A stretch of DNA of 64,000 nt from an uncultured Verrucomicrobiae bacterium (GCA_963827205.1 CAWHAH010000004.1:192241-256240); one strand, 5' to 3'; shown: positions 6,645 through 39,667, counted from the first letter of the stretch. Notes: a model not told the origin generated them from the letters alone. Program-made: numbers and translations.

Positions 6645-6740
6645 ATTTCAAATTTGAAATTTCAGATTTGAAATCCGGAGGCGGGCGGGTGTATTCAAGA
6701 CTCCGGAAATTCCAAATTTGAGATTTCAGATTTCAAAAAA
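6645..6740. repeat. AT-rich imperfect inverted repeat built of GAAAT/ATTTC units around a GC-rich 20-nt loop
   Basis: Arm A 6645-6680 (atttcaaatttgaaatttcagatttgaaatccggag). Arm B 6701-6740 (ctccggaaattccaaatttgagatttcagatttcaaaaaa). The innermost 7 bp are perfect (tccggag/ctccgga). A third copy lies inside the next gene at 7067-7099. Confidence 0.6.
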
Positions 6741-8232: not shown

Positions 8233-8379
8233 ATTTATGATTTATGATTTACGATTTAGGATTGCCGGTCGTAGTGCGACTTGCGGTGAAGGATTAGCAA
8301 ATTCCCCGGTTTCGGCGTGTGGTTCGACCAGGCGTTCTGACGCGAAAAAATCATCAATCATAAATCGTAAATCATAAAT
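8233..8379 (+). promoter_or_regulatory. Long inverted repeat (31-position stem, 85-nt loop) filling the spacer and covering the rnc start codon; candidate RNase III autoregulatory or processing site
   Basis: 8233-8263 pairs with 8349-8379: 27 Watson-Crick pairs, 1 G-U and 3 mismatches, with 19 consecutive pairs. The arms are GATTTAY heptad repeats. A8378 and U8379 of the ATG lie inside the stem. Confidence 0.55.
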
Positions 8380-19779: not shown

Positions 19780-20187
19780 TCAAAGCGGCCTTGCCAATTT
19801 CGCCAGCAGTTCGCGCGGTGTGACAATCTGAATTCCAAACGGCTTTTTCATCGCCAGCAAATCATCATCGCGTGACACAATGACTTTTGCCCCGGCAGCC
19901 AGGGCACAGGCCAGATACGGATCGTCTTTCGCGTCCCGGCTGCGTTGCTTGCCCAACGGCGCGGGTTCAACCAGCTTCACCCGGTCGTGATACCAGGTCA
20001 GCAGATTGGGCGCGGCGTGCCTGAATTTGCCCCCGCGTTCCGCAACCAAGGCCCGCACTTCTTCCAGAATTTCCAGCGTGGCAAAAACGGTGATTCGCCG
20101 TCTGGCCATCGCCCGGAGGCAATTGTAAGCATCACCACGCCAGCCCACACCGGCAAAGACGACGTTGGCATCAAGCACGACGCGCAC
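19780..20187 (-). CDS. PIN-domain toxin (TIGR00305-like type II TA toxin)
   Basis: MRVVLDANVVFAGV...SRDAKDDPYLACALAAGAKVIVSRDDDLL carries the acidic PIN residues. GTG start. Overlaps the upstream antitoxin gene by 17 nt. Confidence 0.9.
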   Translation of the reverse strand: MRVVLDANVVFAGVGWRGDAYNCLRAMARRRITVFATLEILEEVRALVAERGGKFRHAAPNLLTWYHDRVKLVEPAPLGKQRSRDAKDDPYLACALAAGAKVIVSRDDDLLAMKKPFGIQIVTPRELLAKLARPL

Positions 20188-20446
20188 GTTTTTTCCTCTC
20201 CGCCCGGAGGCGATGCTGGGCTTTCACAATCCCGGCCATTTCTTCGTCCGCAGGATCGCCGATGGGCGCGCCCTCGATGGCCTTTTCCAAAAGTGCCATG
20301 TCCTGCTTGATTTGTTCCTGCCGCCGGTTGCGGATCAGGTCGCGCATATATTCGCTCATGGAGCCAAACGCGTGCGCCTCCGAGTCTGACCGGGCGAAAT
20401 CCGCCAGCTCCGGGTTCAACGAAATGTTTATGGTCACCGCTTTCAT
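20171..20446 (-). CDS. Ribbon-helix-helix antitoxin, ParD-like
   Basis: MKAVTINISLNPELADFARSDSEAHAFGSMSEYMRDLIRNRRQEQ resembles ParD/COG3609. ATG 20446 is chosen. The upstream part of ORF 20171-20557 is translated repeat sequence (MSLLTSAATRF). Confidence 0.8.
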   Translation of the reverse strand: MKAVTINISLNPELADFARSDSEAHAFGSMSEYMRDLIRNRRQEQIKQDMALLEKAIEGAPIGDPADEEMAGIVKAQHRLRAERKKRARRA

Positions 20447-20534
20447 GCCTTCAAAAATAATGCGTTGGCAGTACATGTCAAGGCTTGCCATTGACGTTTG
20501 CCAAATGACATCCGCCCTCCCCATGAACCTCGTA

Positions 20535-20601
20535 GCAGCCGACGTGAGGAGGCTCATTCCAATCTAGGCGAATGAAGTCAGAGCCTCCTCACGTCGGCTG
20601 C
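20535..20601. repeat. Perfect 21-bp inverted repeat with a 25-nt loop
   Basis: gcagccgacgtgaggaggctc (20535-20555) and gagcctcctcacgtcggctgc (20581-20601) are exact reverse complements. Confidence 0.85.
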
Positions 20602-20640
20602 CACGGTTCAGGGGTTCAATACGCGAACGCTTTCGGGAAA

Positions 20641-20990
20641 CTCTCACCCCGGCACTCTCCTTCGGGAGAGGGAGAATCGTTCGCCGCTTCTTTGAAAATT
20701 GACACGACCGGATTGGCCGGACGCTCATCCGCAAAACCAGAAACAATCGAAAGCAGTTTCCTCTCCTGTCCGCCTTCGCCTCTGGGGCGTGTTGCCGGAA
20801 ACAAAAGGAGCGCGGACAGCCATGTCCGCGCGACGGCACCCGGAGAAACCCGCTTAAATCGTGAAGTCGCATGAACGCGCGGACTCGCGGTCCGCGCTCC
20901 GAGCTTTTGGGCAATACGCCCCTCCGGCTTCGGCGCGATCGCGTCGAAGCGCAGCGAAGACGGAGGGGAGAGGATAAAAGGTGAGGGCGG
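20641..20990. repeat. Cluster of GC-rich palindromic units in the dnaE-antitoxin spacer
   Basis: 20641-20674: ctctcaccccggcactctcc ttcg ggagagggag. 20810-20831: gcgcggaca gcca tgtccgcgc. 20877-20897: gcgcggac tcgcg gtccgcgc. 20961-20990: ggaggggagagg ataaaa ggtgagggcggg. Confidence 0.6.
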
Positions 20991-21031: not shown

Positions 21032-23635
21032 TTATTCCCGGCTGCCGTTGGATCCATTTTTACGTTCCCAGCGGCGCTGGCGTTCGGGCAGGCTCGCGTC
21101 CACTTTCGCGTAGTAGGTTTCCTCGCCGAACAATTGATTGGCCGCCTGCTCCAGTTCCATGGACGGCGTGACACTGAAGCGTTCGTTGGTGTCCACGAAG
21201 ACGTTTCCGCCGCCGGGTTGCATGAAGCACAGCAACAATGGACATTTGCCCGAATGCGCCGCCACCAGTTCGCGCACGGCGTCGAGATGTTCCGGTTTCA
21301 AGTGCGCGGTGTGCAGGCGCAAATGGACCTGTTTGGTGAACCGTTTCGGCGCGTCTTCCAGCGGCAGGATTTCCTGCGGGAATATTTTCGGCTTTTCGTC
21401 GCCGGTGTTCACTTCGCCGATGACGAGGATGGCCCGATTAGGTTTGAGTAATTCACGATATTTTTCGTAATTCTCGTTCATGCACAGCACCTGCACGGAG
21501 CCTTCGAGGTCTTCGAGCGTGATCATCGAGTACGGCTTACCGCTCTTTTTCGACACGCCGTTTTGCACCGCGGCAATCAATCCGCCGATGCGCGTGAGGC
21601 TGCGATTCGGCAGTTCCGCGAGCCTGGCGGTGTTGGCCAGCGCGTATTTTTCGAGGATCGGCGCGAAGGGCGTCAGCGGATGGCCGGTGACGTAAAAACC
21701 GAGCAGTTCCTTTTCGTGCGCGAGCAGTTCGTGCTGCGGCCATTCGGGCAGATTGCTGATGGCTTCGGGCATCGGCGGCGCTTTTTCCTCCAACGCGCCA
21801 AACAGCGAGCTTTGCCCCTTCTGTTTGTCGGACAAAATGCTCGCCGCGCGGGCGAGCGTGCGCTCGATTTGCGCGAACAGCGTGGCGCGCGTCTGGCCGA
21901 AGGCATCGCACGCGCCGGATTTGATAAGGGCTTCAAGGATTTTCCGGTTCACCGTCCGACCGTCCACGCGTTCGCACAAATCCGAAAGCGACGTGAATTT
22001 TCCGCCGTCGCTCCGCGCCTTGAGAATCGTTTCCACGGCGACTTCGCCGACGCCTTTGATGGCGGCCAGGCCGAAGCGGATGGCTTGCCCCTCACCCCGG
22101 CCCTCTCCCCGTCCGACGGGGAGAGGGTGGCCGGAGGCCGGGTGAGGGGAAGATTTCGCTGGCGTGAAGTAAACGCCGCTTTCATTCACATCCGGCTGCA
22201 AAACCTCGATGCCGAACTCGCGCGCCTCGTTGATGTACTGGCTTAACTTGGCGGTGTCCGCCATGTCGTTGGTCATCATCGCGCAGAAAAATTCGACCGG
22301 ATAATTCGCCTTCAGATAGGCGGTCTGATACGCGACGATGGCATAAGCCGCGGCGTGCGATTTGTTGAAGCCGTAACCGGCGAACTTTTCCAGCAAATCG
22401 AAAATATCGTTCGCCTTCGCCTCGGGGATGTGATTTTTCTCCTTGCAACCCTTGACGAAAACGGCGCGTTGCTTGGCCATTTCCTGGGGCTTCTTTTTGC
22501 CCATCGCGCGCCGGAGCAGGTCGGCGCCGCCGAGCGTGTAGCCCGCCAGCACCTGCGCGGCTTGCATCACCTGCTCCTGGTAAATCAAAATGCCATAAGT
22601 CTCGCGGGCAATCGGTTCGAGCAACGGATGCTCGTATTCAATCTTCACTTCGCCCTGCCGGCGCCGGATGAATTCGGGTATCAGTTCCATCGGGCCGGGC
22701 CGGTAAAGCGCCACCAGCGCCGTGATGTGTTCGATGGAGCTGATCTGGAATTTACGGCACAAATCGCGCATCCCGCCGGATTCCAACTGGAACACGCCGA
22801 GCGTTTCCGCCTTGTTCAACAGGTCGTAAGTCTTCGCGTCGTCGAGCGGCAGATGGTCAATGTCAATTTCAACGCCGTGGGTGCGTTTGACCATTTCGCA
22901 CGCGTTGCGGATGACCGTGAGCGTTTTCAGGCCGAGAAAATCCATTTTCAGCAGGCCGAGATCGCCGACGGGGTTCATGGCGTATTGGGTGACGAGCGTG
23001 CCGCTTTCGTCCTGTTTGAGCGGGAGCAGATTCACGAGCGGCTGGTCGCCGATGACGACGCCGGCGGCGTGTACGCTCGCGTTGCGCGCGAGGTCCTCGA
23101 GCACGAGCGCCGTGTCAATGAGTTCATGCGTGACGTCCTCGCCCTCGTAGGCCTCCTTGAGTTCGGGTGATTGCTTGAGCGCTTTTTCCAGCGTCATCTT
23201 CAAATCGAACGGAATCATCTTCGCCAGCCGGTCGCATTCGCCATAGCTCAAGCCCATCACGCGGCCCACATCGCGCACCACGCTTTTTGCGCCCATCGTG
23301 CCGAAGGTGATGATTTGGGCAACGGAATCGCGCCCGTATTTCTCGCGGACATATTCGATGACGTCGGCGCGGCGATCGTCGGCAAAGTCAATGTCAATGT
23401 CCGGCGGATTAACGCGTTCAGGATTCAGGAAACGCTCGAACAGCAGGCCGTAGCGGATCGGGTCCACGTTCGAGATTTCCAGCAGGTAAGTGACAATCGA
23501 ACCGGCGGCGGAACCGCGCGCCACGCAGGCGATGCCATGCTGGTGACCGTAGCGGATAAAATCACCGACGATGAGGAAGTAACTGATGAACCCGGTTTTC
23601 TCAATCACGGTCAGTTCATGCTTGAGGCGATCCAT
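21032..23635 (-). CDS. dnaE: DNA polymerase III alpha subunit, C-terminal 867-aa fragment (frame broken from the N-terminal part)
   Basis: [70 protein letters not shown] is the canonical DnaE palm region. The frame is open upstream only to TAA at 23738-23740. Confidence 0.92.
22088..22149. repeat. GC-rich palindromic element inserted in frame inside dnaE
   Basis: cccctcaccccggccctctccccgtc cgac ggggagagggtggccggaggccgggtgagggg. Translated on the minus strand as [23 protein letters not shown]. It belongs to the same family as 20641 and 23690. Confidence 0.7.
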
Positions 23636-24852
23636 GATGACCTTGACGGCGGCGGCGATTTCCGGATTTTGAAGATTGTTGATTGGCTCGCCCTCACCCT
23701 GACCCTCTCCCCGGGGAGAGGGGACAGCGATTGCGCGTTAGTCTTATTATCTGCAACTCCCGATTCGCCTGCCGTCGGCGAATTATCCTCCCTCTCCCTG
23801 GGGGAGAGGGCCGGGGTGAGGGGTTCGTTCGCCTGATACGTCGGCAGCCGCGCCGGGTCATCAATGCCTTCGACGATGAATTCCTTGCCCTCGATATTGG
23901 CGTGAATGGTGTAACGGCGGAACAATCCTTCGGCCAGCCATTGCCGCAAATAACCCTCGCGCGTGAAATGTTCCGGCGGATGAAAAACCGGGTAGTGCAG
24001 CTTGCCGAACTCGATTTCTACGTTACATCGTTCCGCCACCTCCAGAGTGTTTTTTACCGCCTCCGGCGTGTCGGCAAAACGCGCCTTCATTTCCTCCGCC
24101 GGGCGCAGGTAAAACTGCTCCGGTTCGTAGCGCAGCCGTTTCGTGTCAGCGAGTTGCGTCTGGGTGCCGATGCAAATCAGGCAATCGTGCGCGTGCGAAT
24201 GGCTTTTCTCGATGTAATGAACATCGTTCGTGGCGACGAGCTTCAGGCCGAATTCCTTCGCCCATTGAATCAAATGGCGGTTCACTTTTGCCTGTTCCGC
24301 AATGCCGTGGTTTTGCAGTTCGAGATAAAAATTATCCGGGCCGAGCGTTTGTTTGAACCAATCCACTGTTTCGCGCGCCTTGTCCAACTGGTCTTTCGTG
24401 ATCAAATCGGGAATCTCGCTGGCGAGACAGCCGGACATGGCGATGAGGCCGTTCTTGTGCGCAGCGAGCAGTTCTTTGTCTATGCGCGGCTTATAATAAT
24501 AACCGGTGAGATGGGCTTCGGTCGTCAGCTTGATGAGATTTTTGTAGCCGGTCGCGTCCCTGGCGAGCAAACCGAGATGATGATAAACATCGCGCCCACC
24601 GCTGGTGGTTTTCTTCTCCAACCGGCTGCCCGGTGCGACATACACCTCGCAGCCGATGATGGGTTTGATGCCTTTCTCGCGCGCGGCCTGGTAAAAATCA
24701 ATCGCGCCGTAGAGCACCCCGTGGTCGGTGATGGCGAGTGCGGGGAACTTCAATTGATGGGCCTTGTCCACCAGCCGGTCCAGCCGGCAGGCGCCATCGA
24801 GCAGCGAATACTCGGTGTGCAAATGGAGATGAACAAAGTCCGCGTGCGACAT
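23611..24852 (-). CDS. dnaE: DNA polymerase III alpha subunit, N-terminal PHP-domain fragment (413 aa including translated repeat)
   Basis: MSHADFVHLHLHTEYSLLDGACRLDRLV...ALAITDHGVLYGAIDFYQAAREKGIKPIIGCE is the PHP domain. The last ~65 aa ([18 protein letters not shown]...[17 protein letters not shown]) are translated element plus out-of-frame dnaE. Confidence 0.92.
   Translation of the reverse strand: MSHADFVHLHLHTEYSLLDGACRLDRLVDKAHQLKFPALAITDHGVLYGAIDFYQAAREKGIKPIIGCEVYVAPGSRLEKKTTSGGRDVYHHLGLLARDATGYKNLIKLTTEAHLTGYYYKPRIDKELLAAHKNGLIAMSGCLASEIPDLITKDQLDKARETVDWFKQTLGPDNFYLELQNHGIAEQAKVNRHLIQWAKEFGLKLVATNDVHYIEKSHSHAHDCLICIGTQTQLADTKRLRYEPEQFYLRPAEEMKARFADTPEAVKNTLEVAERCNVEIEFGKLHYPVFHPPEHFTREGYLRQWLAEGLFRRYTIHANIEGKEFIVEGIDDPARLPTYQANEPLTPALSPREREDNSPTAGESGVADNKTNAQSLSPLPGERVRVRASQSTIFKIRKSPPPSRSSWIASSMN
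23690..23823. repeat. 134-nt composite palindromic (MITE/RPE-like) element inside dnaE at the frame break
   Basis: Outer inverted ends ccctcaccc / gggtgaggg. Two inner perfect palindromes: ccctctccccggggagaggg (23703-23722) and ccctctccctgggggagaggg. The ~65-nt core has lower GC. 134 nt is not a multiple of 3. Confidence 0.7.
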
Positions 24853-25958: not shown

Positions 25959-27201
25959 AATTTCTGATCAATCCGGGACGAGCCGGGACAAGGGTATTAT
26001 TCGCAGAATTCGTGATAAATGGACAGAAAAAACTCGCCGGCGCCGGCGACGCTTTTTGCCATGAACCGGGACAAGAACGGGCGATGTTTGCCTGCTGGCG
26101 GAAAAAATCCTGGATCACCTCCGCTACCCGCAAGAGTTGTTTGTCGGTCAATTCCGGATAAATCGGCAAACTCAGGCACTCGTGCGCGGCCTTTTCGGCG
26201 ACGGGAAAATCGCCGGGTTTATGGCCGAGATTCGCATAGCATTTCTGCAAATGCAATGGCATCGGATAATGCAGCGCGCAACCGATGCCGTTGGCTTCGA
26301 GATATTTTTTCAAATCATCGCGGCGCGGATGGCGCACAACGTAAAGATGCCACGCGCTCTGCGCGTAATCCGCTTCGCGCGGTAATTGCAGCGGCGTGTC
26401 AGACAACAATTCGTGATAGCGATGCGCGACGCGGCGACGTTCGTTCGTCCATTTCGTCAAATGTTTCAGCTTCACTCCCAGCGTTGCGCCCTGAATGCCT
26501 TCCATGCGGTAATTGTAGCCAATTTCGTCATGGTAATAACGCACGGTGGAGCCGTGCTCGCGCAGTGAACGCGCGCGAGCGGCAAATGCCGCATTGTTAG
26601 TGACGAGCGCGCCGCCTTCGCCGCAGGCGCCGAGGTTTTTGCCAGGATAAAAGCTGAAACAGGAAATCTCGCCGGACGTGCCGACGATTTTGCCTTTGTA
26701 TTTTGCGCCGTGCGCCTGCGCCGCGTCTTCGACCAGCGGCAGTTTATGCTTGCGGCAAACGGCCAAAATCGCGTCCACGTCAAAGGGATGGCCGTAGAGA
26801 TGCACGGGCATGACGGCTTTGGTGCGCCGCGTGATGGCCCGTTCAATGAGCTTCGGGTCGAGATTGAACGTGGCGTCATCAATATCCACATAGACCGGGT
26901 TCGCCCCGACATAGGAAATCGCCCAACTGGTGGCCACGAACGTGAACGGCGTGGTGATAACTTCGTCGCCGGGGCCAACGCCGAGCAACAGCATGGCCAC
27001 GTGCAACGCCGAGGTGCCGCTGTTGAAACCGACGCAATGTTCCGCGCCGACAAATCGGGCAAAGTCTTTTTCAAATTGCGTCACGTCCGGTCCCAGGCAG
27101 AAGGAGCACTGGTCAATGGTGCGCGCGATGGCGGCGTCAAGGTCCTTGCGGACATTCCGCAATTGGGCCGGCAGGTCGAGATAGGGAATTGGGTCAGCCA
27201 T
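25789..27201 (-). CDS. DegT/DnrJ/EryC1/StrS-family sugar aminotransferase with an anomalous ~100-aa C-terminal tail
   Basis: GFNSGTSALHVAM, DAAQAHGAKY and SCFSFYPGKNLGACGEGG (PLP lysine region). The domain ends near ...VAEVIQDFFRQQ (~26090). There is no in-frame stop until 25789, which gives a 170-nt overlap with the aldolase gene. Confidence 0.88.
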   Translation of the reverse strand: MADPIPYLDLPAQLRNVRKDLDAAIARTIDQCSFCLGPDVTQFEKDFARFVGAEHCVGFNSGTSALHVAMLLLGVGPGDEVITTPFTFVATSWAISYVGANPVYVDIDDATFNLDPKLIERAITRRTKAVMPVHLYGHPFDVDAILAVCRKHKLPLVEDAAQAHGAKYKGKIVGTSGEISCFSFYPGKNLGACGEGGALVTNNAAFAARARSLREHGSTVRYYHDEIGYNYRMEGIQGATLGVKLKHLTKWTNERRRVAHRYHELLSDTPLQLPREADYAQSAWHLYVVRHPRRDDLKKYLEANGIGCALHYPMPLHLQKCYANLGHKPGDFPVAEKAAHECLSLPIYPELTDKQLLRVAEVIQDFFRQQANIARSCPGSWQKASPAPASFFCPFITNSANNTLVPARPGLIRNYESNKDQRHGHQPLALVPARNQGARLHHPRRRPDEQPPLRRQDRKGGVRRVRRRGH

Positions 27202-27294
27202 TTCGAAGAAAAAATAGTGTGTCCGCGCAGATTTGAACAGTCGCAAATTTGCGTGGCGGCTATCTTGCCGGCCAAATCATCCCCTGTTCTTCGC

Positions 27295-28326
27295 TTAACG
27301 GCCAATCTTGCCGGCAACGCCCAGAATCCGGTCAAGTCTTTGCAGGACCTGATACGGCTGGATGGACTCCATGCACGGATGAGCCTCTTGACAGATCGAG
27401 GAATCCAAGAACTTGGTGTCGCAGACGCAGGAACCGCCGACAATCACTTGTTCTTTCTGGTAGATTGGAGCGGTGTGAAGGAGTGAATCTCCGACGGCAT
27501 ACAACCCAATTACGGGAACGCCTAAAGCAGCGGCAAAATGAAGCGGCCCTGTGTCTCCGGCGACAACTAATTTGGCCCGCTTCAAGATTGCCAGAAAAAG
27601 CCGGAGATCAGGTGTTGGGGGCAGGGCAACAATTTCCGGTTCCCTAGCCTTAAGTTCATCCAACAGCGCGCGTTCCCGGTTACTGGTTCCCGATGAAAAA
27701 GCGAGCGCATGTCCCGCCGATGCGGCCAGACGGTAAAATTCCGCCCAATGGGACACAGGCCATTCTTTTTTGGGCTGCGAGGTTGCCAGATGGCAGATGA
27801 CTCTGGCGTCCGGCAAAAGACCAGTGGCCTTGCCAGACAACTCCGGGTCGGCGTATATCTCCAGACGCGTGGACTTGGGCGGCGGGATTCGGCAGGCGGA
27901 TAAGAGTTCGACGTGGCGGCGCACCCAGGAATCCGGCAGGGTTTCCGCGGGAACGATTTGAGTGTAGCAAATTTTTCTTCCCCACCGCTGCTCTTGTTCA
28001 AGCGCGCCCAGCCGCTCACGTGCGCCGCATAAGAGACTCAGAATCGCGCCGCGATCGTTGCCGACAAAATCCACGGAGAAATCAAAGCGTTCGCGGCGCA
28101 AGGCCCGGATGATCGGCCAGGATTCGCGAATCCGCGCTTTGCCGCGCGTGCGCGGCATCGGCCATACTTTTGTCAACCATGGCAAATGTTCGAGCACCGG
28201 AACCGCTTCTGCGGCCACCAGCACGTGAAGTTCGCATTCCGGCTGGTGCTCTCTCAGCGCCCGCAGCGCGGGAACCAGGAAGACCGCGTCACCAAGGTAT
28301 TTGAACTGAATGGCGAGAATTTTCAT
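27295..28326 (-). CDS. Glycosyltransferase family 9 (LPS heptosyltransferase-like)
   Basis: MKILAIQFKYLGDAVFLVPALRAL start and C-terminal VVAGDTGPLHFAAALGVPVIGLY. Confidence 0.9.
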   Translation of the reverse strand: MKILAIQFKYLGDAVFLVPALRALREHQPECELHVLVAAEAVPVLEHLPWLTKVWPMPRTRGKARIRESWPIIRALRRERFDFSVDFVGNDRGAILSLLCGARERLGALEQEQRWGRKICYTQIVPAETLPDSWVRRHVELLSACRIPPPKSTRLEIYADPELSGKATGLLPDARVICHLATSQPKKEWPVSHWAEFYRLAASAGHALAFSSGTSNRERALLDELKAREPEIVALPPTPDLRLFLAILKRAKLVVAGDTGPLHFAAALGVPVIGLYAVGDSLLHTAPIYQKEQVIVGGSCVCDTKFLDSSICQEAHPCMESIQPYQVLQRLDRILGVAGKIGR

Positions 28327-28416
28327 AAGTGGCACAGGCATCTTGCCTGTTCGCTGCCATCATTTTTGTCGCGCAACATCAAGTTCAACACACAGGCGAG
28401 CCGCCTGTGCCACTAC

Positions 28417-30240
28417 TCACGACGAGAATTGCAACTCGTAAAGTTTTTGATAAATGCCGCCCCGCCGGACGAGTTCCGCGTGTTTGCCGGTCTCGACAAC
28501 GCGCCCTTGGTCAAGCACGACAATCACGTCCGCGTTGAAAATGGTGGAAAGCCGGTGCGCGATGCACAACGTCGTGCGACCCTTCATCAATTCGTCGAGC
28601 GCGGCCTGCACCGCGCGTTCGGACTCCGTGTCCAGCGCGCTGGTGGCTTCGTCGAGGACCAGAATTGGCGCGTTTTTCAGCATGGCGCGGGCGATGGCGA
28701 GGCGCTGCCGCTGGCCGCCGGAAAGCATCACACCTTTCTCGCCAATCACCGTGTCGAAGCCCTGCGGTTTCTCCATGATGAAATCATAGGCGTAAGCATG
28801 CCTGGCGGCGGTGATAATTTCTTCGTTCGTTGCGCCCGGGCGGCCCATCTCGATGTTCCGGCAGATGGTGTCGTTGAACAAAATGGTTTCCTGGGTGACG
28901 ACGGCGATCTGGTTGCGCAGGTCGCGCGTGGCCACTTCGCGGATGTCCACGTCGCCGATGCGGACGGCGCCCCGGGCCGGGTCGTAGAACCGTAGCAGCA
29001 GATTCGCCACCGTCGTTTTGCCGGCACCGCTGGAACCGACGAGCGCAACAAGCTGGCCGGGATGAATCCGCAGGTCAATGTCGCGCAGCACGGGCTTGTC
29101 GCCGTAGGCAAAATCCACGTGCTCGAAATGGATGTCAGCGCCGGTGGCCTTGAGCGGCCGGGGTTGTGCCGGTTCGGGGACGCTGGTTTGCGTGGCCAGA
29201 AGTTCAAAGACCCGTTCGCTCGATGCACGGGCCTGGGCGAGCTGATTGTAGAGGCGCGAGAGATTCTTGATTGGCGGGTACATCAAAAAAACGCTCAAGA
29301 TAACCTGGACAAAATCACTGGTGCTGGGACGGGCTTGGGTGAGATAGATCAAATACAACAACGCCAGCGCCACGCCCAAGGCTCCCAAAAAATCAATGAT
29401 CGGCCCCGAAATTTCGTTGGCGCGGATGATGCGCATATATTGGCTGACCGCCTTGTGCGCCGTGTTGCGAAACTCGGAAGCGACGACGTTTTCGAGATTG
29501 TAGGCCTTGACAATGCGATGACCGGTGAAGGCCTCGGCCATGACCTGCATCAAGCCGGCGGTTTGCGTCTGCATCTCGCGGCTGGACCGGCGAACTTTGC
29601 GGTTGTAAACGGACAGGGGAATCAGGCAAAACGGCAGGACAATCAACGAGAGCAAGGTCAGTTTTCGCGTCTCCGGCCGGTACAACAACAGGGCCAGCAC
29701 GCTGACCAACGTGACCGGGTCACGGATGATGACCGAGGTGGCGCCGCTCAAAACGCTTTGCAGCGCGGAGGTGTCGCTCATGATGCGCGAGATGAGTTCG
29801 CCGCTGCGGTTTTTGGTGAAAAAACCAGCGGAAAGATTCAGCAGATGCGAAAAGAGGCGCACGCGAATGTCGGTAATGGTGCGGATGGCCGTCCATTGCA
29901 GAAAATAGACGTTCAGGTAGGCAAACAAGCCCCGTAAAAACATGACCAACGGGATCAAGGCCACGAGGGCAATCACGGCGCCAGGGTGCTGATGCAGTCC
30001 CTGCCCCATCGCCTCGCGCGCGTCGTGAAACCATTGCGTCATAATGGCGGGCATGCCCGGCAGCGGTTTTTCCGGCCCGGCGGTGTTGGCCGATGGAAAG
30101 ATGACGCTGCATACAAACGTGATCGTGGCGATCATCAATGGCGCCATCAGACCGCTGACGATGCCCGTGAGCACGCCGAGAAAGAGCCGCGCGCGGTAGG
30201 GCCGGGCCAGACCCCAGACTTTGAACAGGAATTCTATCAT
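28417..30240 (-). CDS. msbA: ABC transporter permease/ATPase fusion, MsbA-like lipid A / lipid flippase
   Basis: Six-TM N-terminal domain plus an NBD with GSSGAGKTT, LSGGQRQRLAIARAM and ILVLDEATSALD. Sits next to GT9 genes. Confidence 0.88.
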   Translation of the reverse strand: MIEFLFKVWGLARPYRARLFLGVLTGIVSGLMAPLMIATITFVCSVIFPSANTAGPEKPLPGMPAIMTQWFHDAREAMGQGLHQHPGAVIALVALIPLVMFLRGLFAYLNVYFLQWTAIRTITDIRVRLFSHLLNLSAGFFTKNRSGELISRIMSDTSALQSVLSGATSVIIRDPVTLVSVLALLLYRPETRKLTLLSLIVLPFCLIPLSVYNRKVRRSSREMQTQTAGLMQVMAEAFTGHRIVKAYNLENVVASEFRNTAHKAVSQYMRIIRANEISGPIIDFLGALGVALALLYLIYLTQARPSTSDFVQVILSVFLMYPPIKNLSRLYNQLAQARASSERVFELLATQTSVPEPAQPRPLKATGADIHFEHVDFAYGDKPVLRDIDLRIHPGQLVALVGSSGAGKTTVANLLLRFYDPARGAVRIGDVDIREVATRDLRNQIAVVTQETILFNDTICRNIEMGRPGATNEEIITAARHAYAYDFIMEKPQGFDTVIGEKGVMLSGGQRQRLAIARAMLKNAPILVLDEATSALDTESERAVQAALDELMKGRTTLCIAHRLSTIFNADVIVVLDQGRVVETGKHAELVRRGGIYQKLYELQFSS

Positions 30241-30497
30241 TCGACACCGTTATTGTTGGCGGTCGGCAGAAGAAAGCGAGAATTTTTCTGCGGGTACGCC
30301 GATGGTGTGCCCATGCGGTTTGCACCGTTAGAAGCAATCCGTCTTTACAGGCACCGGCGGGTCATTTATTGGTTCGCTCATCATGTCCTTGAATCGAGGC
30401 GGCCTTCATCGGCAAGACCCGTCTTTTACGACGTCTTGAAACGGGCGGAGGACGCCGGCCGCAAGGAGACTCGATTGGGCGACAAAGCTGGTTCACG

Positions 30498-31499
30498 ATG
30501 ACGATTGAGAAAAATCCATTGCCTGCAGAAGGTCAACGTTCAGCGAACGATGTGGGGTGCCCGACGCTGCCTCGGTCGGGAGAGGGCAAGCTCTTCATCA
30601 TCTCGGGCCGGTGTGGCCGCCTGGGAAATCGCATCATCCTGTTCGCCAATTTCATTGCCTTGGCGGAGGAGCAGGGACATCGCGTTTCCAATCCCACATT
30701 CCATTCCTACGCCCAATTCTTTGAAGCGACGCGGGACGACATCTATTGCCGTTATCCCCGCGCCACGCGAAAAAGCTGGTGGGACATCATTCCCGGCGTG
30801 GGCGGCGCTGTCCGCGGCACGCGCCTCTTTTTTCGACTGGCCCGTGTGTTCGGCGTGTGGAATGAGCGTCATCCGGTTTTCGGAAGGAGCATCTTTACGT
30901 TGCGCGAAACTCCGGCGCAGCCAATCACGGCGCTCGACGGCCCGGAGGTCCAGGCCAAAATCCGCGACGCCCGGGTCATTTTCGTGAACGGCTGGAATTT
31001 TCGGGCACCCGAACTCGTTAAGCGTCATGCGGAGAAAATAAGGTCCTATTTCCGGCCGATTGCGGAGATTGAGCAAGCCAGCCGACAGGCGGTGGAGCAA
31101 CTCCAGCGGCAGGCGGACGTGGTCATGGGGGTTCACGTCCGCCATGGTGACTATCGCACGTGGAACGGAGGCAAATGCTTCTTCCCGGCTTCACAATACG
31201 CAGATTGGATGAAGGGACTGGCGGAACAATTTCCGGGTCGCAAAGTGGCCTTTTTTGTGTGTAGTGACGAGCCCCGCCTTGAACACGAATTCCCGGGGTT
31301 GCGCGTGGGCCTTGGCGCCGGCTCGGCCGTGGGCGACCTGTGCGCGCTGGCCCGGTGCGATTACATTTTGGGGCCGGTAAGCACTTTTTCGATGTGGGCC
31401 TCGTTTTACGGGAACAAGCCACTGTTCCTCATCCGCGACGGCGCAGCCCGGATCGAGCGGAGCGAGTTTCGCGTCTCGGACCTGCGCGAAATACCCTGA
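30498..31499 (+). CDS. Putative alpha-1,2-fucosyltransferase-like glycosyltransferase (GT11-like motifs)
   Basis: GVHVRHGDY (HxRRGDY-type motif), FFVCSDEP, and DLCALARCDYILGPVSTFSMWASFYG (compare the SNSTFSWW motif). Family call is from motifs only. Confidence 0.65.
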   Translation: MTIEKNPLPAEGQRSANDVGCPTLPRSGEGKLFIISGRCGRLGNRIILFANFIALAEEQGHRVSNPTFHSYAQFFEATRDDIYCRYPRATRKSWWDIIPGVGGAVRGTRLFFRLARVFGVWNERHPVFGRSIFTLRETPAQPITALDGPEVQAKIRDARVIFVNGWNFRAPELVKRHAEKIRSYFRPIAEIEQASRQAVEQLQRQADVVMGVHVRHGDYRTWNGGKCFFPASQYADWMKGLAEQFPGRKVAFFVCSDEPRLEHEFPGLRVGLGAGSAVGDLCALARCDYILGPVSTFSMWASFYGNKPLFLIRDGAARIERSEFRVSDLREIP

Positions 31500-31631
31500 T
31501 GGCGCCGAAAGTGACTCGCCGACACTTATTTTTCGGCGGTTGCCACCGAAGTGCGAATGTCAACCATAAGTCGCACTGTTGTTTGAATTAAAACACTTGA
31601 TGTGACGGACGTTGTTGTGTTACGCAACGTT

Positions 31632-32663
31632 ATGCGTGCGTTCGGGGTAGTCATTCCGACCAAAAACTCGATGCACTATCTGCCCAATCACGTGCAGAAC
31701 CTGTCCACGTGGATTGACCTGGCGGAGCAGGTGGTGGTTGTGGACAGCTTCTCCAAAGACGGAACGGTGGATTTCCTCAAGAGCAATTTGCACCACTCGA
31801 ACATTCATTTTGTGAAGCATCCGCCGGGTTTGTATGCTTCTTGGAATTACGGCATCCGCCAGTTGACGACCGAGTATTGCTACATCTCAACGGTGGGCGA
31901 TTCATTGACCCGGGCCGGAGCGGAGCATTTGGTTACCACGGCCAGACGCTTGCAATGTGATGTGCTGGTCAGCCGGCCCGATTTTGTGAACGAAGCCGGC
32001 CGGGCGTGTAAGGGTCCGGAATGGCCAATGGATGATGTCATCAAGCGGTTACGATTGCGCGCACCATGCCGATTGCACCCAACCATCATGGTAGCCGCCG
32101 CACTAACGCATACCGGCGGCGCAATTACAGGAAGTTGTGCGAGCGACCTGTTCCGCACCGCCACACTGCAAAAATATCCTTTTCCCTTGGATTTTGGCGT
32201 GGCGGGTGACGCGGCTTGGAATTTGGACAATGTTGGACGTGTCATTTGGGCGGCCACTCCGGAAAAAGTGACCACCTTCCGCCGGCATCACCCAACCGCC
32301 TCCACCGGGGAAATCAAAATGGGTCAAGTCGCCAGCAACTTCGCCCCCAGGGCGAACAAGGTTGTCAACGAATGGCTGCAATCCTGCCCGGCCGGGGTTC
32401 CGATGGAAATTTGCGCGGACATAAAACAGCTTTTAGCCGTCTCGATCGAATACGAGCGCTCCTGCCACCGATCCAATGTCTTCCGAAAGAGCAAATGGCC
32501 TTGGATTCTTAATCCCCGAGCCTGGTTGGCCCGGACCCGGCGCTACGAATTAAAATCACAGGTCAATGGCCTGATGCAAAAAATTTGCGATCAAAGTCGC
32601 CACGATTGGCGGGCCGGCTCCAGCCGTCAGCCCTTCAGTTTCTTGGCGGCAAATGGCGCGTAA
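31632..32663 (+). CDS. Glycosyltransferase family 2
   Basis: FGVVIPTKNSMHYLPNHVQNL...VVVVDSFSKDGTVDFL is a GT-A N-terminus. ATG 31632 is preferred over GTG 31602. Confidence 0.8.
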   Translation: MRAFGVVIPTKNSMHYLPNHVQNLSTWIDLAEQVVVVDSFSKDGTVDFLKSNLHHSNIHFVKHPPGLYASWNYGIRQLTTEYCYISTVGDSLTRAGAEHLVTTARRLQCDVLVSRPDFVNEAGRACKGPEWPMDDVIKRLRLRAPCRLHPTIMVAAALTHTGGAITGSCASDLFRTATLQKYPFPLDFGVAGDAAWNLDNVGRVIWAATPEKVTTFRRHHPTASTGEIKMGQVASNFAPRANKVVNEWLQSCPAGVPMEICADIKQLLAVSIEYERSCHRSNVFRKSKWPWILNPRAWLARTRRYELKSQVNGLMQKICDQSRHDWRAGSSRQPFSFLAANGA

Positions 32664-32751
32664 GGCGCACGACATCTTTGCTGCAAGCCGGGCTTTTCGT
32701 TCCTGATCCGGCTACACCGGGTTGGGTTTTGTTTTGAGATTGCTGGTTGGA

Positions 32752-33870
32752 TCAGGCGGCCACGGCTTTGTAAATCTTGATGGTATCACTCGCGGTTTTG
32801 CTCCATTGGAAGCGGGCGGCCCAAGCCAAGCCACGGTTGATCCATTCCTGCCGCTGATCACTACCCAGGTTGCAAACCTTCAACATTCCCTCAGTCATGC
32901 TTTCGATGGAGCGGGGGTCAATCATGATGGCCGCCCTTCCGGTCACCTCGGTCAGACTGGACGTGTCCGAGACGATGGCGAGCGAGCCGCAAGCCATTGC
33001 TTCCAGCGGAGGAATTCCAAAGCCTTCATACAGTGAAGGGTAAACCAGTGCCAGGGAACAGCGATAAAGTTTGGCCAGGTGAGGGTCCGGAATCAGCCCG
33101 GTATTTTTGACCCGACCGTCAATTTTCAACTCGCTGATCAATTTGCTTTCCACAGGGTCGAAATTTGGGCCGACCACGCAAAGCTCCAGCTCCGTCCATT
33201 TTTCTGCCGCTCGGGCAAAGGCTTGCAACAGCGGGGCAAAGTTTTTGTACCTGGCCTTGCGGGCGCCAACAAACAGAAAGTAAGGACGTTCGGGAACCGG
33301 CTCATCGCCCAGCGACATTTCCCGTGAAAGCTCCGGGGCCAGCGGGGTAACAAACACGCGTTTTTCGGAAACGGGAATGCGCTCCAACAAATCCCTCCGC
33401 GTATTTTCTGACACGCAGATGACCGCGTCCGCCGATTCAACCGCTTTTCGTTTGACTTTGGCATCATGGCTTTTGGGATCCAGCTCCTCGCTGTAAATCT
33501 CCGGAATCATGTCATGAACGGTCAGAACAAACGGAGCATCGCGTTTGGTTTGGCTTTCCAACGCCAGGGAACCATGATGCACGGAGTGAACAAGGCTGAA
33601 ATCTTTCCTGGATTCAATTCGGGCAAAGTATCTTTTGGCGGCCCAATTGAAGAGTTTCTTTGGACGCAGGTATGGAACCGGAAAACGCTTCAGTACCAGG
33701 TTGGGATGAGTTGGAAATCTCAACTGCCGATATTCGGATGGTTTCGCGTTGCGCACCGTGACGACCGGCGTCCAATCATCCGGCAATCCATTGACAATAT
33801 TTGCCAGATAGCGGCTAATCCCTCCTACAGGTTGCATGCGATATACATGCCCGTCGTAAAGGATTTTCAT
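32752..33870 (-). CDS. Glycosyltransferase family 4
   Basis: MKILYDGHVY...ALVYPSLYEGFGIPPLEAMACGSLAIVSDTSSLTEV. ATG 33870 is preferred over TTG 33897. Confidence 0.9.
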   Translation of the reverse strand: MKILYDGHVYRMQPVGGISRYLANIVNGLPDDWTPVVTVRNAKPSEYRQLRFPTHPNLVLKRFPVPYLRPKKLFNWAAKRYFARIESRKDFSLVHSVHHGSLALESQTKRDAPFVLTVHDMIPEIYSEELDPKSHDAKVKRKAVESADAVICVSENTRRDLLERIPVSEKRVFVTPLAPELSREMSLGDEPVPERPYFLFVGARKARYKNFAPLLQAFARAAEKWTELELCVVGPNFDPVESKLISELKIDGRVKNTGLIPDPHLAKLYRCSLALVYPSLYEGFGIPPLEAMACGSLAIVSDTSSLTEVTGRAAIMIDPRSIESMTEGMLKVCNLGSDQRQEWINRGLAWAARFQWSKTASDTIKIYKAVAA

Positions 33871-38476: not shown

Positions 38477-39498
38477 TTATCCGCCCCCAGCCAGGAGGCG
38501 CAATACGTCTGCGATTTCGATTGTGAATTCGGCGTCCCGACGGTTGTGAGCGGCCAGTCCGCGCGCACGCGCTCCGACCAGCGACGTATAATGCAAACCT
38601 CGGGCCAGAGCCAGGTGTTTGTAGCAAGGAGTTTGATTTTCGGGATGAAGCAGCTCGATCACCTTTGCGCCACGCGGCGCAAATACCAAGTTCGCGAGGC
38701 GGCGCCGTGTGGAGCCACCACATACCGGGCTGCACCAACCAATTTGGCCTGTTCGGCGACAGACAAAAGTTCCGGCTGGACGCAGGCAAACCCCAACGCC
38801 GCCAACTGCGTTTCCAGTTCCGTTTCGTTCACCAGTCGCCGCCGCTTGGTGCCGTGCCGCGAAAGGTAGATTTTTTCCGGACTGGAATTTCCCTCCGGGA
38901 AGAGCGAGCGCACCCATTCCGCACGCCCAAGGCGCGACCTGCCACAGCGGCGCGGGCATGGCCGGCACCACGAGCCGTTCAAATTGGTGGACAAAATTCT
39001 TCGAGCAGCGCAGGCGTTTTTCCGGCGGCACTTTCAACCGGTCTAAAATTTCATCTTGAAACCGTGAGGGCCGCCTGTCCAGCAGGACAAAGTCATAATC
39101 CAACCACTTCGCCGCCTGCAACATCTTCCAGCGCGGCAGACTGTCCAGCAGCCAGTGATAGTAATTGTCGCTGCTGGCTGATCCCAAAAGCAAAGCGGTC
39201 CCCTGCCGGTATTTTGGCATCCGCAAACGCCGGCGATGTAACAGATAATGGCTACGCGCTTCCGCGCAGCCGAACAAACTTTGCAGCCCGCCGACCACTA
39301 CATCGTCCGCGGTTGCCACCAAGCGCAGATCGCCGATGATTTTGCCATCGGCCAGTTCGGCAACCGTCAGGTGGTGGTGCCCGGAATCTTTTCCGTTGAC
39401 GGAGAATGAAACATCACTTTGTGCCGGTGCGCTGCCCAAGGCAGAAAGTCTTCCAGCGACGAAACCACGCCGCTTGGCAGCCAGAGAAAAGGATGCAT
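38477..39498 (-). pseudogene. GT61/DUF563 paralogue with three frameshifts (about 39440, 38920, 38700)
   Basis: Homology to 33963-35003 jumps between frames. MHPFLWLPSGVVSSLEDFLP is in frame A. LGSAPAQSDVSFSVNGK...APWAC is in frame B. EWVRSLFPEGNSSPEKIYLSR...VVAPHGA is in frame C. LANLVFAPRGAKVIELLHP returns to frame B. Confidence 0.8.
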
Positions 39499-39667
39499 TA
39501 ATTGCCTCGGCGCGCGAAATTTTTGTACGCTGAGATTCAAGGCCGCCTTTTCACCAACAAATCGTCCGACCATGGCGACCAGAATTGGTTTCCAAGCTTG
39601 TATTTGTCAACTCAAAGCCCAACTTTTTGACTGACGTTCCAGGAAAATTCCGCCAATCTGTTCCCTG

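Follow-up and report, generated by a model that had tools for sequence, protein, structure and literature searches.

Two palindromic repeats read as loops of the replicative polymerase DnaE in a Limisphaerales-type Verrucomicrobium, and the probable consensus error behind its apparently split gene

The gene dnaE, which encodes the replicative DNA polymerase III alpha, is examined here in a stretch of 64,000 nucleotides (nt) of assembled DNA from an uncultured Verrucomicrobiae bacterium (GCA_963827205.1, CAWHAH010000004.1:192241-256240), called the window in what follows. Two palindromic elements lie within the gene, at places named site 1 and site 2 (Table 1), and comparison with relatives confirms that both are real insertions at two hypervariable loops of the protein. 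In the window the gene appears as two overlapping open reading frames (ORFs). This split is very probably not biological: we infer a consensus indel error in a long-read-type assembly, by which one G would have been lost from the tip of a hairpin in the site-1 element. For annotation, the window's dnaE would then count as a single intact gene in which one base is probably wrong, and not as a pseudogene or a split polymerase.

The two ORFs lie on the minus strand, from 24852 to 23611 (413 amino acids, aa) and from 23635 to 21032 (867 aa), and overlap by 25 nt in different frames, the downstream frame being -1 relative to the upstream one, i.e., one base short. Since the downstream frame is closed by a TAA at 23740-23738 and has its first start codon in the ATG at 23635, the shift is confined to 23737-23614, which is the interval already given in a preliminary description of this DNA. 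Against the 1146 positions of the NCBIfam model NF004226, the upstream ORF covers 2-315 (348 bits) and the downstream ORF 325-1142 (1,051 bits, which exceeds the model's cut-off of 1,002), and the scores exceed those given by NF004225, the model for the error-prone DnaE2. Pfam finds only PHP in the upstream ORF and DNA_pol3_alpha, finger, HHH_6 and OB domains in the downstream one, where the match to the palm domain (PF07733) begins at profile position 25 of 260; it found an intein domain in neither. The ORF map, Pfam and NF004226 agree with the original assignment, and the two ORFs are contiguous halves of a single replicative DnaE. With the missing G restored, the window yields one DnaE of 1,273 aa. 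An exact-match look-up of both ORFs found no record, and a protein search placed the gene in the Verrucomicrobiota/Limisphaerales, with a full-length top match (P0001) at 90% identity. The host is a soil Verrucomicrobium of Limisphaerales type with a single replicative dnaE, and a check for a second dnaE or a polC, suggested from the start, found none within the 64-kb window.

The site-1 element is built of two inverted ends of about 33 nt, each made of a CCCTCTCCC/GGGAGAGGG hairpin beside a CCCTCACCC tag, placed round a variable core. Its 22-nt outer arms (23691-23712 and 23801-23822) are 91% complementary, and in the predicted DNA fold about 33 nt of each end are paired together. The arms reach a GC content of 76-79%, well above that of the core (Table 1) and of the whole gene (58%). 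The inverted outer ends and the lower-GC core noticed at the outset are therefore both present. As for the two internal perfect palindromes also announced, one stands, the 20-nt CCCTCTCCCCGGGGAGAGGG at 23703-23722, while the other is in fact a hairpin whose 9-bp stem (23790-23798 / 23802-23810) encloses a loop of 3 nt. When intact, the element is translated as a loop of 45 aa. The site-2 element carries the same end motifs folded as one hairpin, with a perfect 13-bp inner stem and a perfect 10-bp outer stem, and these shared features bear out its earlier recognition as a second, in-frame family member of about 62 nt. Relative to an empty site it adds a net 60 nt, read as a loop of about 20 aa, and it is also found in L003, with one mismatch. 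The two elements are not due to chance, because motif counts far exceed expectation and folding beats that of shuffled sequences: CCCTCTCCCC occurs five times in the window (0.06 expected) and CCCTCACCC four times (0.56 expected), in both cases always within dnaE, and the folding z-scores are -5.9 for site 1 and -5.6 for site 2, with none of 200 shuffles as stable in either case.

Among 48 close homologues, DnaE is 85-92% identical to that of the window and the consensus dissolves at exactly two places, site 1 and site 2. The empty site 2 is a loop of eight codons (24 nt), APAR(E/D)GK(A/V), which outgroups at 63-82% identity share with about 30 of the 120 close relatives compared. In about 90 of the 120 there are instead 23-43 residues that are additional or substituted, and these fall into roughly a dozen unrelated types (a reading of peptide lists and not a formal count, k-mer clustering having over-merged them); two of the 120 have about 260 residues there. 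The length of site 1 varies between 8 and 67 residues, one close relative having just 8 aa, and the outgroup linkers measure 45-57 nt. Where the DNA was at hand, the relatives' inserts at both sites are hairpins of different families (z from -4 to -10), many of which start with GTAG (e.g., L038, L048, L025, L040, and L064). No target-site duplication was found at either junction on comparison with empty sites. The positions of the loops rest on alignment to Taq Pol III alpha (2HPI), in which site 1 falls in an unaligned stretch (residues 323-381) and site 2 in a gap between residues 882 and 883; these lie in two short segments that immediately precede the helix-hairpin-helix region. Pfam puts site 2 within HHH_6. 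The structural modeling of the loops that had been advised added nothing to this, an AlphaFold2 model of DnaE 1-1172 built on a 48-sequence alignment having a mean pLDDT of 40.5, too poor to locate them.

These are insertions and not linkers, because site 2 is empty in outgroups and because the palindromic families are found elsewhere; the close relative with an 8-aa site 1 agrees with the palindromic insertions first proposed. That the low-complexity segments are ancestral linkers of the DnaE lineage can be practically dismissed: both sites do vary in all DnaEs, and homologues in the PDB are unaligned at site 1 and gapped at site 2, yet the eight-codon form of site 2 is shared by outgroups and by many close relatives, the inserts are palindromic DNA of repeat families that also occur elsewhere, both between genes and within unrelated ones, and three strains with flanks at least 98% identical hold three different alleles at site 1.

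What, then, of the frameshift? The decisive allele is the near-identical one of L204, which is the same contig as L206, comes from the same species as the window and was reached via the neighboring HMGL-like protein. There dnaE is a single ORF of 1,508 aa, and over the first ~2,650 nt of the gene only two differences from the window are seen, a G more at window 23713 and a single-nucleotide polymorphism (SNP) at 23365. The top protein match, P0001, contains the same site-1 element in frame and reads ...SLSPLPGGEGQGEGEPINNLQ..., and its DNA (L001, 88% nucleotide identity) has CCCC-GGGGG where the window has CCCC-GGGG; a more distant species, L004 (82% protein identity), has five Gs (G5) as well. 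At this hairpin SLSPLPGGEGQGEGEPINNLQ is the in-frame reading and RVRVRASQSTIFK that of four Gs (G4), with which the upstream ORF ends in 31 out-of-frame residues. The same G-run is G5 in 113 of the 122 metagenome copies listed, G4 in five, and has an A (three copies) or a T (one copy) where the extra G would stand in the rest. By tblastn, about 50 Verrucomicrobial dnaE loci keep one frame and the window alone shifts. Alignment with close relatives, which had been recommended as a check, therefore finds the site-1 element present, in frame and 135 nt long in the orthologous copies of L001 and L204. The window sequence would thus be short of one G in the G5 run at the right-hand hairpin tip of a 135-nt element, and the indel would have arisen in the consensus, within a region that differs between strains.

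A wider look at the assembly was provided by a five-way alignment over about 22 kb, comprising the window, L206, L207, L208 (a 12.8-kb contig of an NCBI metagenome-assembled genome) and L209 (a 6.6-kb Logan contig from run SRR28061541). Singleton 1-nt indels number 14 in L207, six in the window and two in L206, with none in L208 or L209. Those of the window fall in locally conserved sequence, at 39446, 38920, 38702, 38398, 36452, and 23713, and three of them put a GT61 glycosyltransferase gene (38477-39549) in three frames, as seen by tblastn. The five window-only indels beyond dnaE, unique against three to four near-identical assemblies, are probable consensus errors, or decay in a strain-variable glycosyltransferase region; an ORF map combined with Pfam on adjacent same-strand ORFs showed no other broken gene and missed the GT61 frameshifts. 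In L207, which is 98% identical to the window, dnaE (L207:15390-19118) falls into three ORFs because of two 1-nt indels other than that of the window, at window-equivalent 23993 and ~22149-22153, the latter in a C-run edging the site-2 element. In L210 (L210:3393-6689) the gene is called as three separate ORFs, and both L207 and L210 are sister assemblies of the same ENA series (ERZ250395xx). Breaks of an essential gene that differ in position between sister assemblies, as mapped in L207, resemble the effect of random consensus indels and favor an assembly error. Two further contigs, L004 and L205, terminate at or just inside site 1, and such endings at the repeat, together with a contig in the 0.2-1 Mb class, fit a long-read origin of the window. 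Homopolymer indels are a documented weak point of nanopore assemblies (PMC9262707). Of the three explanations offered in the preliminary description, L204, L001 and the five-way alignment favor the first, a single-base error in an in-frame loop of 45 aa. GC-rich hairpin repeats in strain-variable regions would then draw indel errors that mimic gene splitting.

Several points weigh against a consensus error. The length of the window's G-run is that of the assembled sequence, and the putative long-read origin is deduced from the contig of 0.2-1 Mb and the indel pattern. The assembly is accurate in places, since window 26742-33340 equals L209 at 100% identity over 6.6 kb. The near-identical allele with the same element is known from one contig only, and the other five indels of the window cluster within ~3 kb of a strain-variable glycosyltransferase region, where genuine decay could account for them. 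Hairpin copies with G4 do occur, as seen above, and the passage from G5 to G4 perfects a quasi-palindrome, which is a known template-switch route for real mutations. The faultless match to L209, the G4 copies elsewhere and the perfect 20-nt palindrome gained by the loss of a G all count in favor of a real and very recent 1-nt deletion in the strain or in part of its population, caused by slippage or template switching in the hairpin. Such a deletion would inactivate dnaE, so that the lineage would be dying out, the variant would be confined to a minority, or the genome would be rescued by another polymerase gene outside the window. DnaE is essential, however, and the window holds no second dnaE or polC; both halves match the intact allele, with one SNP in ~2.6 kb and no decay; the same assembly carries further singleton indels; and in sister assemblies dnaE is broken too, in L207 at other positions. 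A real deletion is on balance improbable.

Much less probable still is a programmed -1 ribosomal frameshift at C-CCC-GGG-G, by which a G4 gene would give a full-length DnaE reading ...SPLPRGEGQGEG... at the junction. The likeness to the programmed -1 frameshift of dnaX (tau/gamma) is real, since in both cases two frames of a replication gene overlap and a hairpin lies close by; the frames share 124 nt here, and a P-site tRNA-Pro on CCC could in principle re-pair one base back on the C4 run. Unlike dnaX, however, dnaE has no canonical X XXY YYZ slippery heptamer in the upstream frame of the overlap (23737-23614), where CUC CCC GGG would permit P-site re-pairing only. The sole strong structure is the hairpin that holds the site, with no stimulator downstream, and the shift is not conserved in orthologues: L204, L001, L004, and P0001 are in frame with G5, and about 50 relatives have one frame. 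Recoding had been listed among the options at the outset, and it loses its footing once the orthologous elements are seen to be simply in frame.

The last of these options, a genuinely split DnaE, is hardly credible either. It would consist of a 413-aa PHP polypeptide and an 867-aa polymerase core started at ATG 23635, which has a weak AAGG seven bases upstream, the two assembling non-covalently. Split polymerases exist in nature, such as cyanobacterial DnaE with its split intein and the two-piece archaeal PolB, and they offer a precedent. In the window, however, the break lies inside the PF07733 palm domain, Pfam sees no intein domain, and the upstream product would end in the 31 out-of-frame residues. 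No relative is split at this point, about 50 of them keep one frame, and a 99.9%-identical strain is unsplit.

Apart from the probable consensus error, the two loops change occupants from strain to strain. The strains whose flanks are at least 98% identical hold a composite element, a GTAG hairpin or a plain linker at site 1 (Table 1). Around site 2, the window and L204 are only 84-91% identical over a tract of ~500 nt, after which identity is back at 99%, a signature of allelic replacement by recombination. The window's site-1 element is common to L001 and its site-2 element to L003. The most probable history is that two non-autonomous palindromic repeats of the CCCTCACCC/CCCTCTCCCC family, resembling REPINs and MITEs (miniature transposable elements with inverted repeats), landed in two hypervariable surface loops and came to be read as extra DnaE loops of 45 aa and about 20 aa. 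Copies that keep the frame may persist in an essential gene where the loop tolerates them, and the occupants would have been swapped between strains by homologous recombination as well as by new insertions. As read from its sequence, the family repeat has no stop codon in four of six frames, so that it can be read through. In its two islands, DnaE offers a natural experiment that shows what amount of foreign sequence can be tolerated by a replicative polymerase.

The family reaches well beyond dnaE. Its architecture, CCCTCACCCC-nn-CCCTCTCCC-loop-GGGAGAGGG followed by a variable core and the mirror image, has a right-end motif found in metagenome contigs that number at least 120 and whose names point mostly to soil, peat, and rhizosphere samples. 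A search pattern that included the dnaE-specific right flank had no match in the metagenomes, and the family-level pattern matched. Both ends could be located in 46 of the 122 copies listed, giving lengths of about 130-152 nt; ends are conserved from copy to copy and cores differ. The composite architecture is also intergenic, upstream of dnaE in L018, and many copies lie within long ORFs. Six other host genes, confirmed by Pfam, carry the element in frame: an AcrB-family pump, Mfd, HypF (in five orthologous contigs), MetH, a NuoF-like protein, and a CysJ-like flavoprotein. In these genes it falls between domains and is read in two different frames. Within the window there are two copies, both in dnaE, plus a degenerate half-copy, CCCTCACC-ttttat-CCTCTCCCC, at ~20966-20990, about 45-65 nt past the dnaE stop; a GC-rich palindrome (20927-20950) comes after it.

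In relatives, the same loops also house whole genes. Y1 transposases of the RAYT type (PF01797) are found in frame in the DnaE loops of at least six assemblies (Table 1); homologues bear the source annotation "REP element-mobilizing transposase RayT," REP standing for repetitive extragenic palindromic. In the embedded RAYTs two motifs are conserved, PNHVHVLV (HUH) and YIQENP, whereas the ATG with which free RAYTs are provided is missing. On either side lie hairpin repeats read as ARASRPF..KHTGGTPVP or GQASRLS..TGGTPVP; their dN is about 0.21 and their dS is saturated. By tblastn, no RAYT was found in the window or beside the 120 metagenome loci examined; the only matches were in L204, L042, and L053, where the flanking repeats are of other families. 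It is rather doubtful, though conceivable, that the DnaE loops of this Limisphaerales clade are dedicated landing pads for REPIN/RAYT-type elements. If they were, functional DnaE-transposase chimeras would carry a single-strand DNA transposase along with the replisome, and the two small elements of the window would be relics of REPIN/RAYT traffic. Other RAYT homologues (P0127, P0128, P0131, P0136, P0168, and P0189) are also called as fusions, with partners such as D-Tyr-tRNA deacylase, AdoMet decarboxylase, and exonuclease VII. It may often happen that RAYTs are joined to neighbor genes when flanking repeats without stops are read through.

How do these elements compare with known systems? In-frame palindromic repeats are classic in Rickettsia, where they are known as Rickettsia palindromic elements (RPEs). 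Like RPEs, the dnaE elements are palindromic (RPEs being about 100-150 nt), sit in frame in an essential gene, and are translated as tolerated surface segments; the RPE-like behavior proposed in the preliminary description is supported by the in-frame alleles. The lineage is different, however, and the likeness is one of behavior; homology with RPE-1 to RPE-8 of Rickettsia would not be expected in a Verrucomicrobium. In dnaE, moreover, many unrelated families make use of the same codon positions, with turnover within one species.

A second comparison is with REPs and REPINs (Di Nocera et al., 2013; Bertels and Rainey), which occur in many copies and, like the elements here, are short GC-rich palindromes without target-site duplication. 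REPINs share the inverted pair of units round a spacer (20-100 nt in REPINs, 67 nt in the site-1 core), and REPs the hairpin stems (9-13 bp in both window elements) and a subset of copies in frame in genes; relatives' dnaE loops hold GTAG-type hairpins and whole RAYT genes. The window elements differ in having no GTAG and no terminal CGTC tag. Their ends are CCCCTCACCC / GGGTGAGGG(G), and the one place where CGTC is present is the 62-nt element's loop. Nor does a RAYT lie beside the 120 copies examined. The conserved ends, at ~33 nt, are longer than a classical REP, and two fixed hot spots in one gene receive about a dozen families. The family thus works like REPINs or RPEs but fails two defining traits of RAYT-mobilized REPs. 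MITEs such as Correia/NEMIS and RUP resemble it in size (about 130-150 nt), in terminal inverted repeats of ~33 nt, and in being non-coding with core subfamilies; the window elements differ in having no target-site duplication at either dnaE site, and an insertion sequence that could be the family's parent, with ends to match, was not found.

Palindromic in-frame insertion is not new as such; the window's contribution is a new family and a new host. Di Nocera et al. (2013, PMC3733652) described intragenic in-frame REPs encoding 20-30 aa and over-represented in replication and repair genes, with one in the DnaE of R. conorii and others in DnaE2 genes, and found the highest GTAG counts in the Verrucomicrobium Opitutus terrae. 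The preliminary description had known of no equivalent for this lineage, which that article contradicts, as it covers in-frame REPs including those of O. terrae. The literature searches made yielded no report of two fixed DnaE codon positions reused by many families, none of whole RAYT genes in frame in DnaE, and none of Limisphaerales repeats. The present case adds a well-sampled example outside Rickettsia of palindromic repeats translated within an essential enzyme, and it bears on why replication and repair genes are favored repeat hosts, a question left open in 2013.

In Rfam, the right-hand hairpin with its GGGTGAGGG tag (window 23690-23724) has whalefall-1 RNA (RF01762) as its best match, at 25.7 bits, and 16 other copies (L084-L124) score 23.5-29.6. 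All are below the gathering score of 37, and membership was rejected. Whalefall-1, a metagenome-derived "sRNA" motif, may itself be a related palindromic repeat.

Table 1. Coordinates of dnaE, its inserted elements and related features; plain numbers are window positions.
Feature	Position	Strand	Remarks
dnaE (replicative DNA polymerase III alpha)	21032-24852	minus	one gene displayed as two ORFs
Site-1 composite palindromic element	23690-23823	minus	134 nt here, 135 nt in intact alleles
Variable core of site-1 element	23723-23789	minus	67 nt, 52% GC, own hairpin ATTCGCC...GGCGAAT
Frameshift site	23709-23712	minus	coding-strand G4 (C4 on plus strand), right-hand hairpin tip; G5 in intact alleles
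Site-2 palindromic element	22088-22149	minus	62 nt, in frame
Intergenic GTAG-type hairpin repeat	20531-20605		downstream of dnaE; 25-bp arms, 96% complementary
Site-1 allele, 135-nt composite	window, L204		
Site-1 allele, GTAG hairpin	L207:16400-16493, L211:1-31		FNVAQPSRLPPDEKSESRRDACVTLKDS
Site-1 allele, non-palindromic linker	L205:3400-3457		QAESKDDGREAKAKIATDPQ
RAYT in DnaE, site 2	L204/L206 (about L204:9782-10580), L042:3270-3926, P0014, P0118, P0121		
RAYT in DnaE, site 1	L053:780-1376		

The surroundings of dnaE vary as well. A PIN-domain gene and a small upstream gene (window 19780-20557) overlap as is often the case in toxin-antitoxin pairs; together with ~1.1 kb of repeat-rich DNA downstream of dnaE they are present in the window, L207, L210, and L211 and not in L204. 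Since this segment varies by strain, the 3′ flank of dnaE is strain-variable too. In the sister strains L204 (5328-5856) and L205 (601-1129), the aminotransferase and HMGL-like genes are separated by a segment of ~530 nt that contains two small ORFs, one of them of 85 aa, and that is absent from the window (position 26104). The intergenic GTAG-type hairpin of Table 1 belongs to the family that fills site 1 of dnaE in L038. Among the other hairpins of the window, also intergenic, that at 28328-28414 is of the GTGGCACAGGC type and lies between two genes, and two AT-rich inverted-repeat clusters, at 8233-8379 and 6645-6724, are of a different kind.

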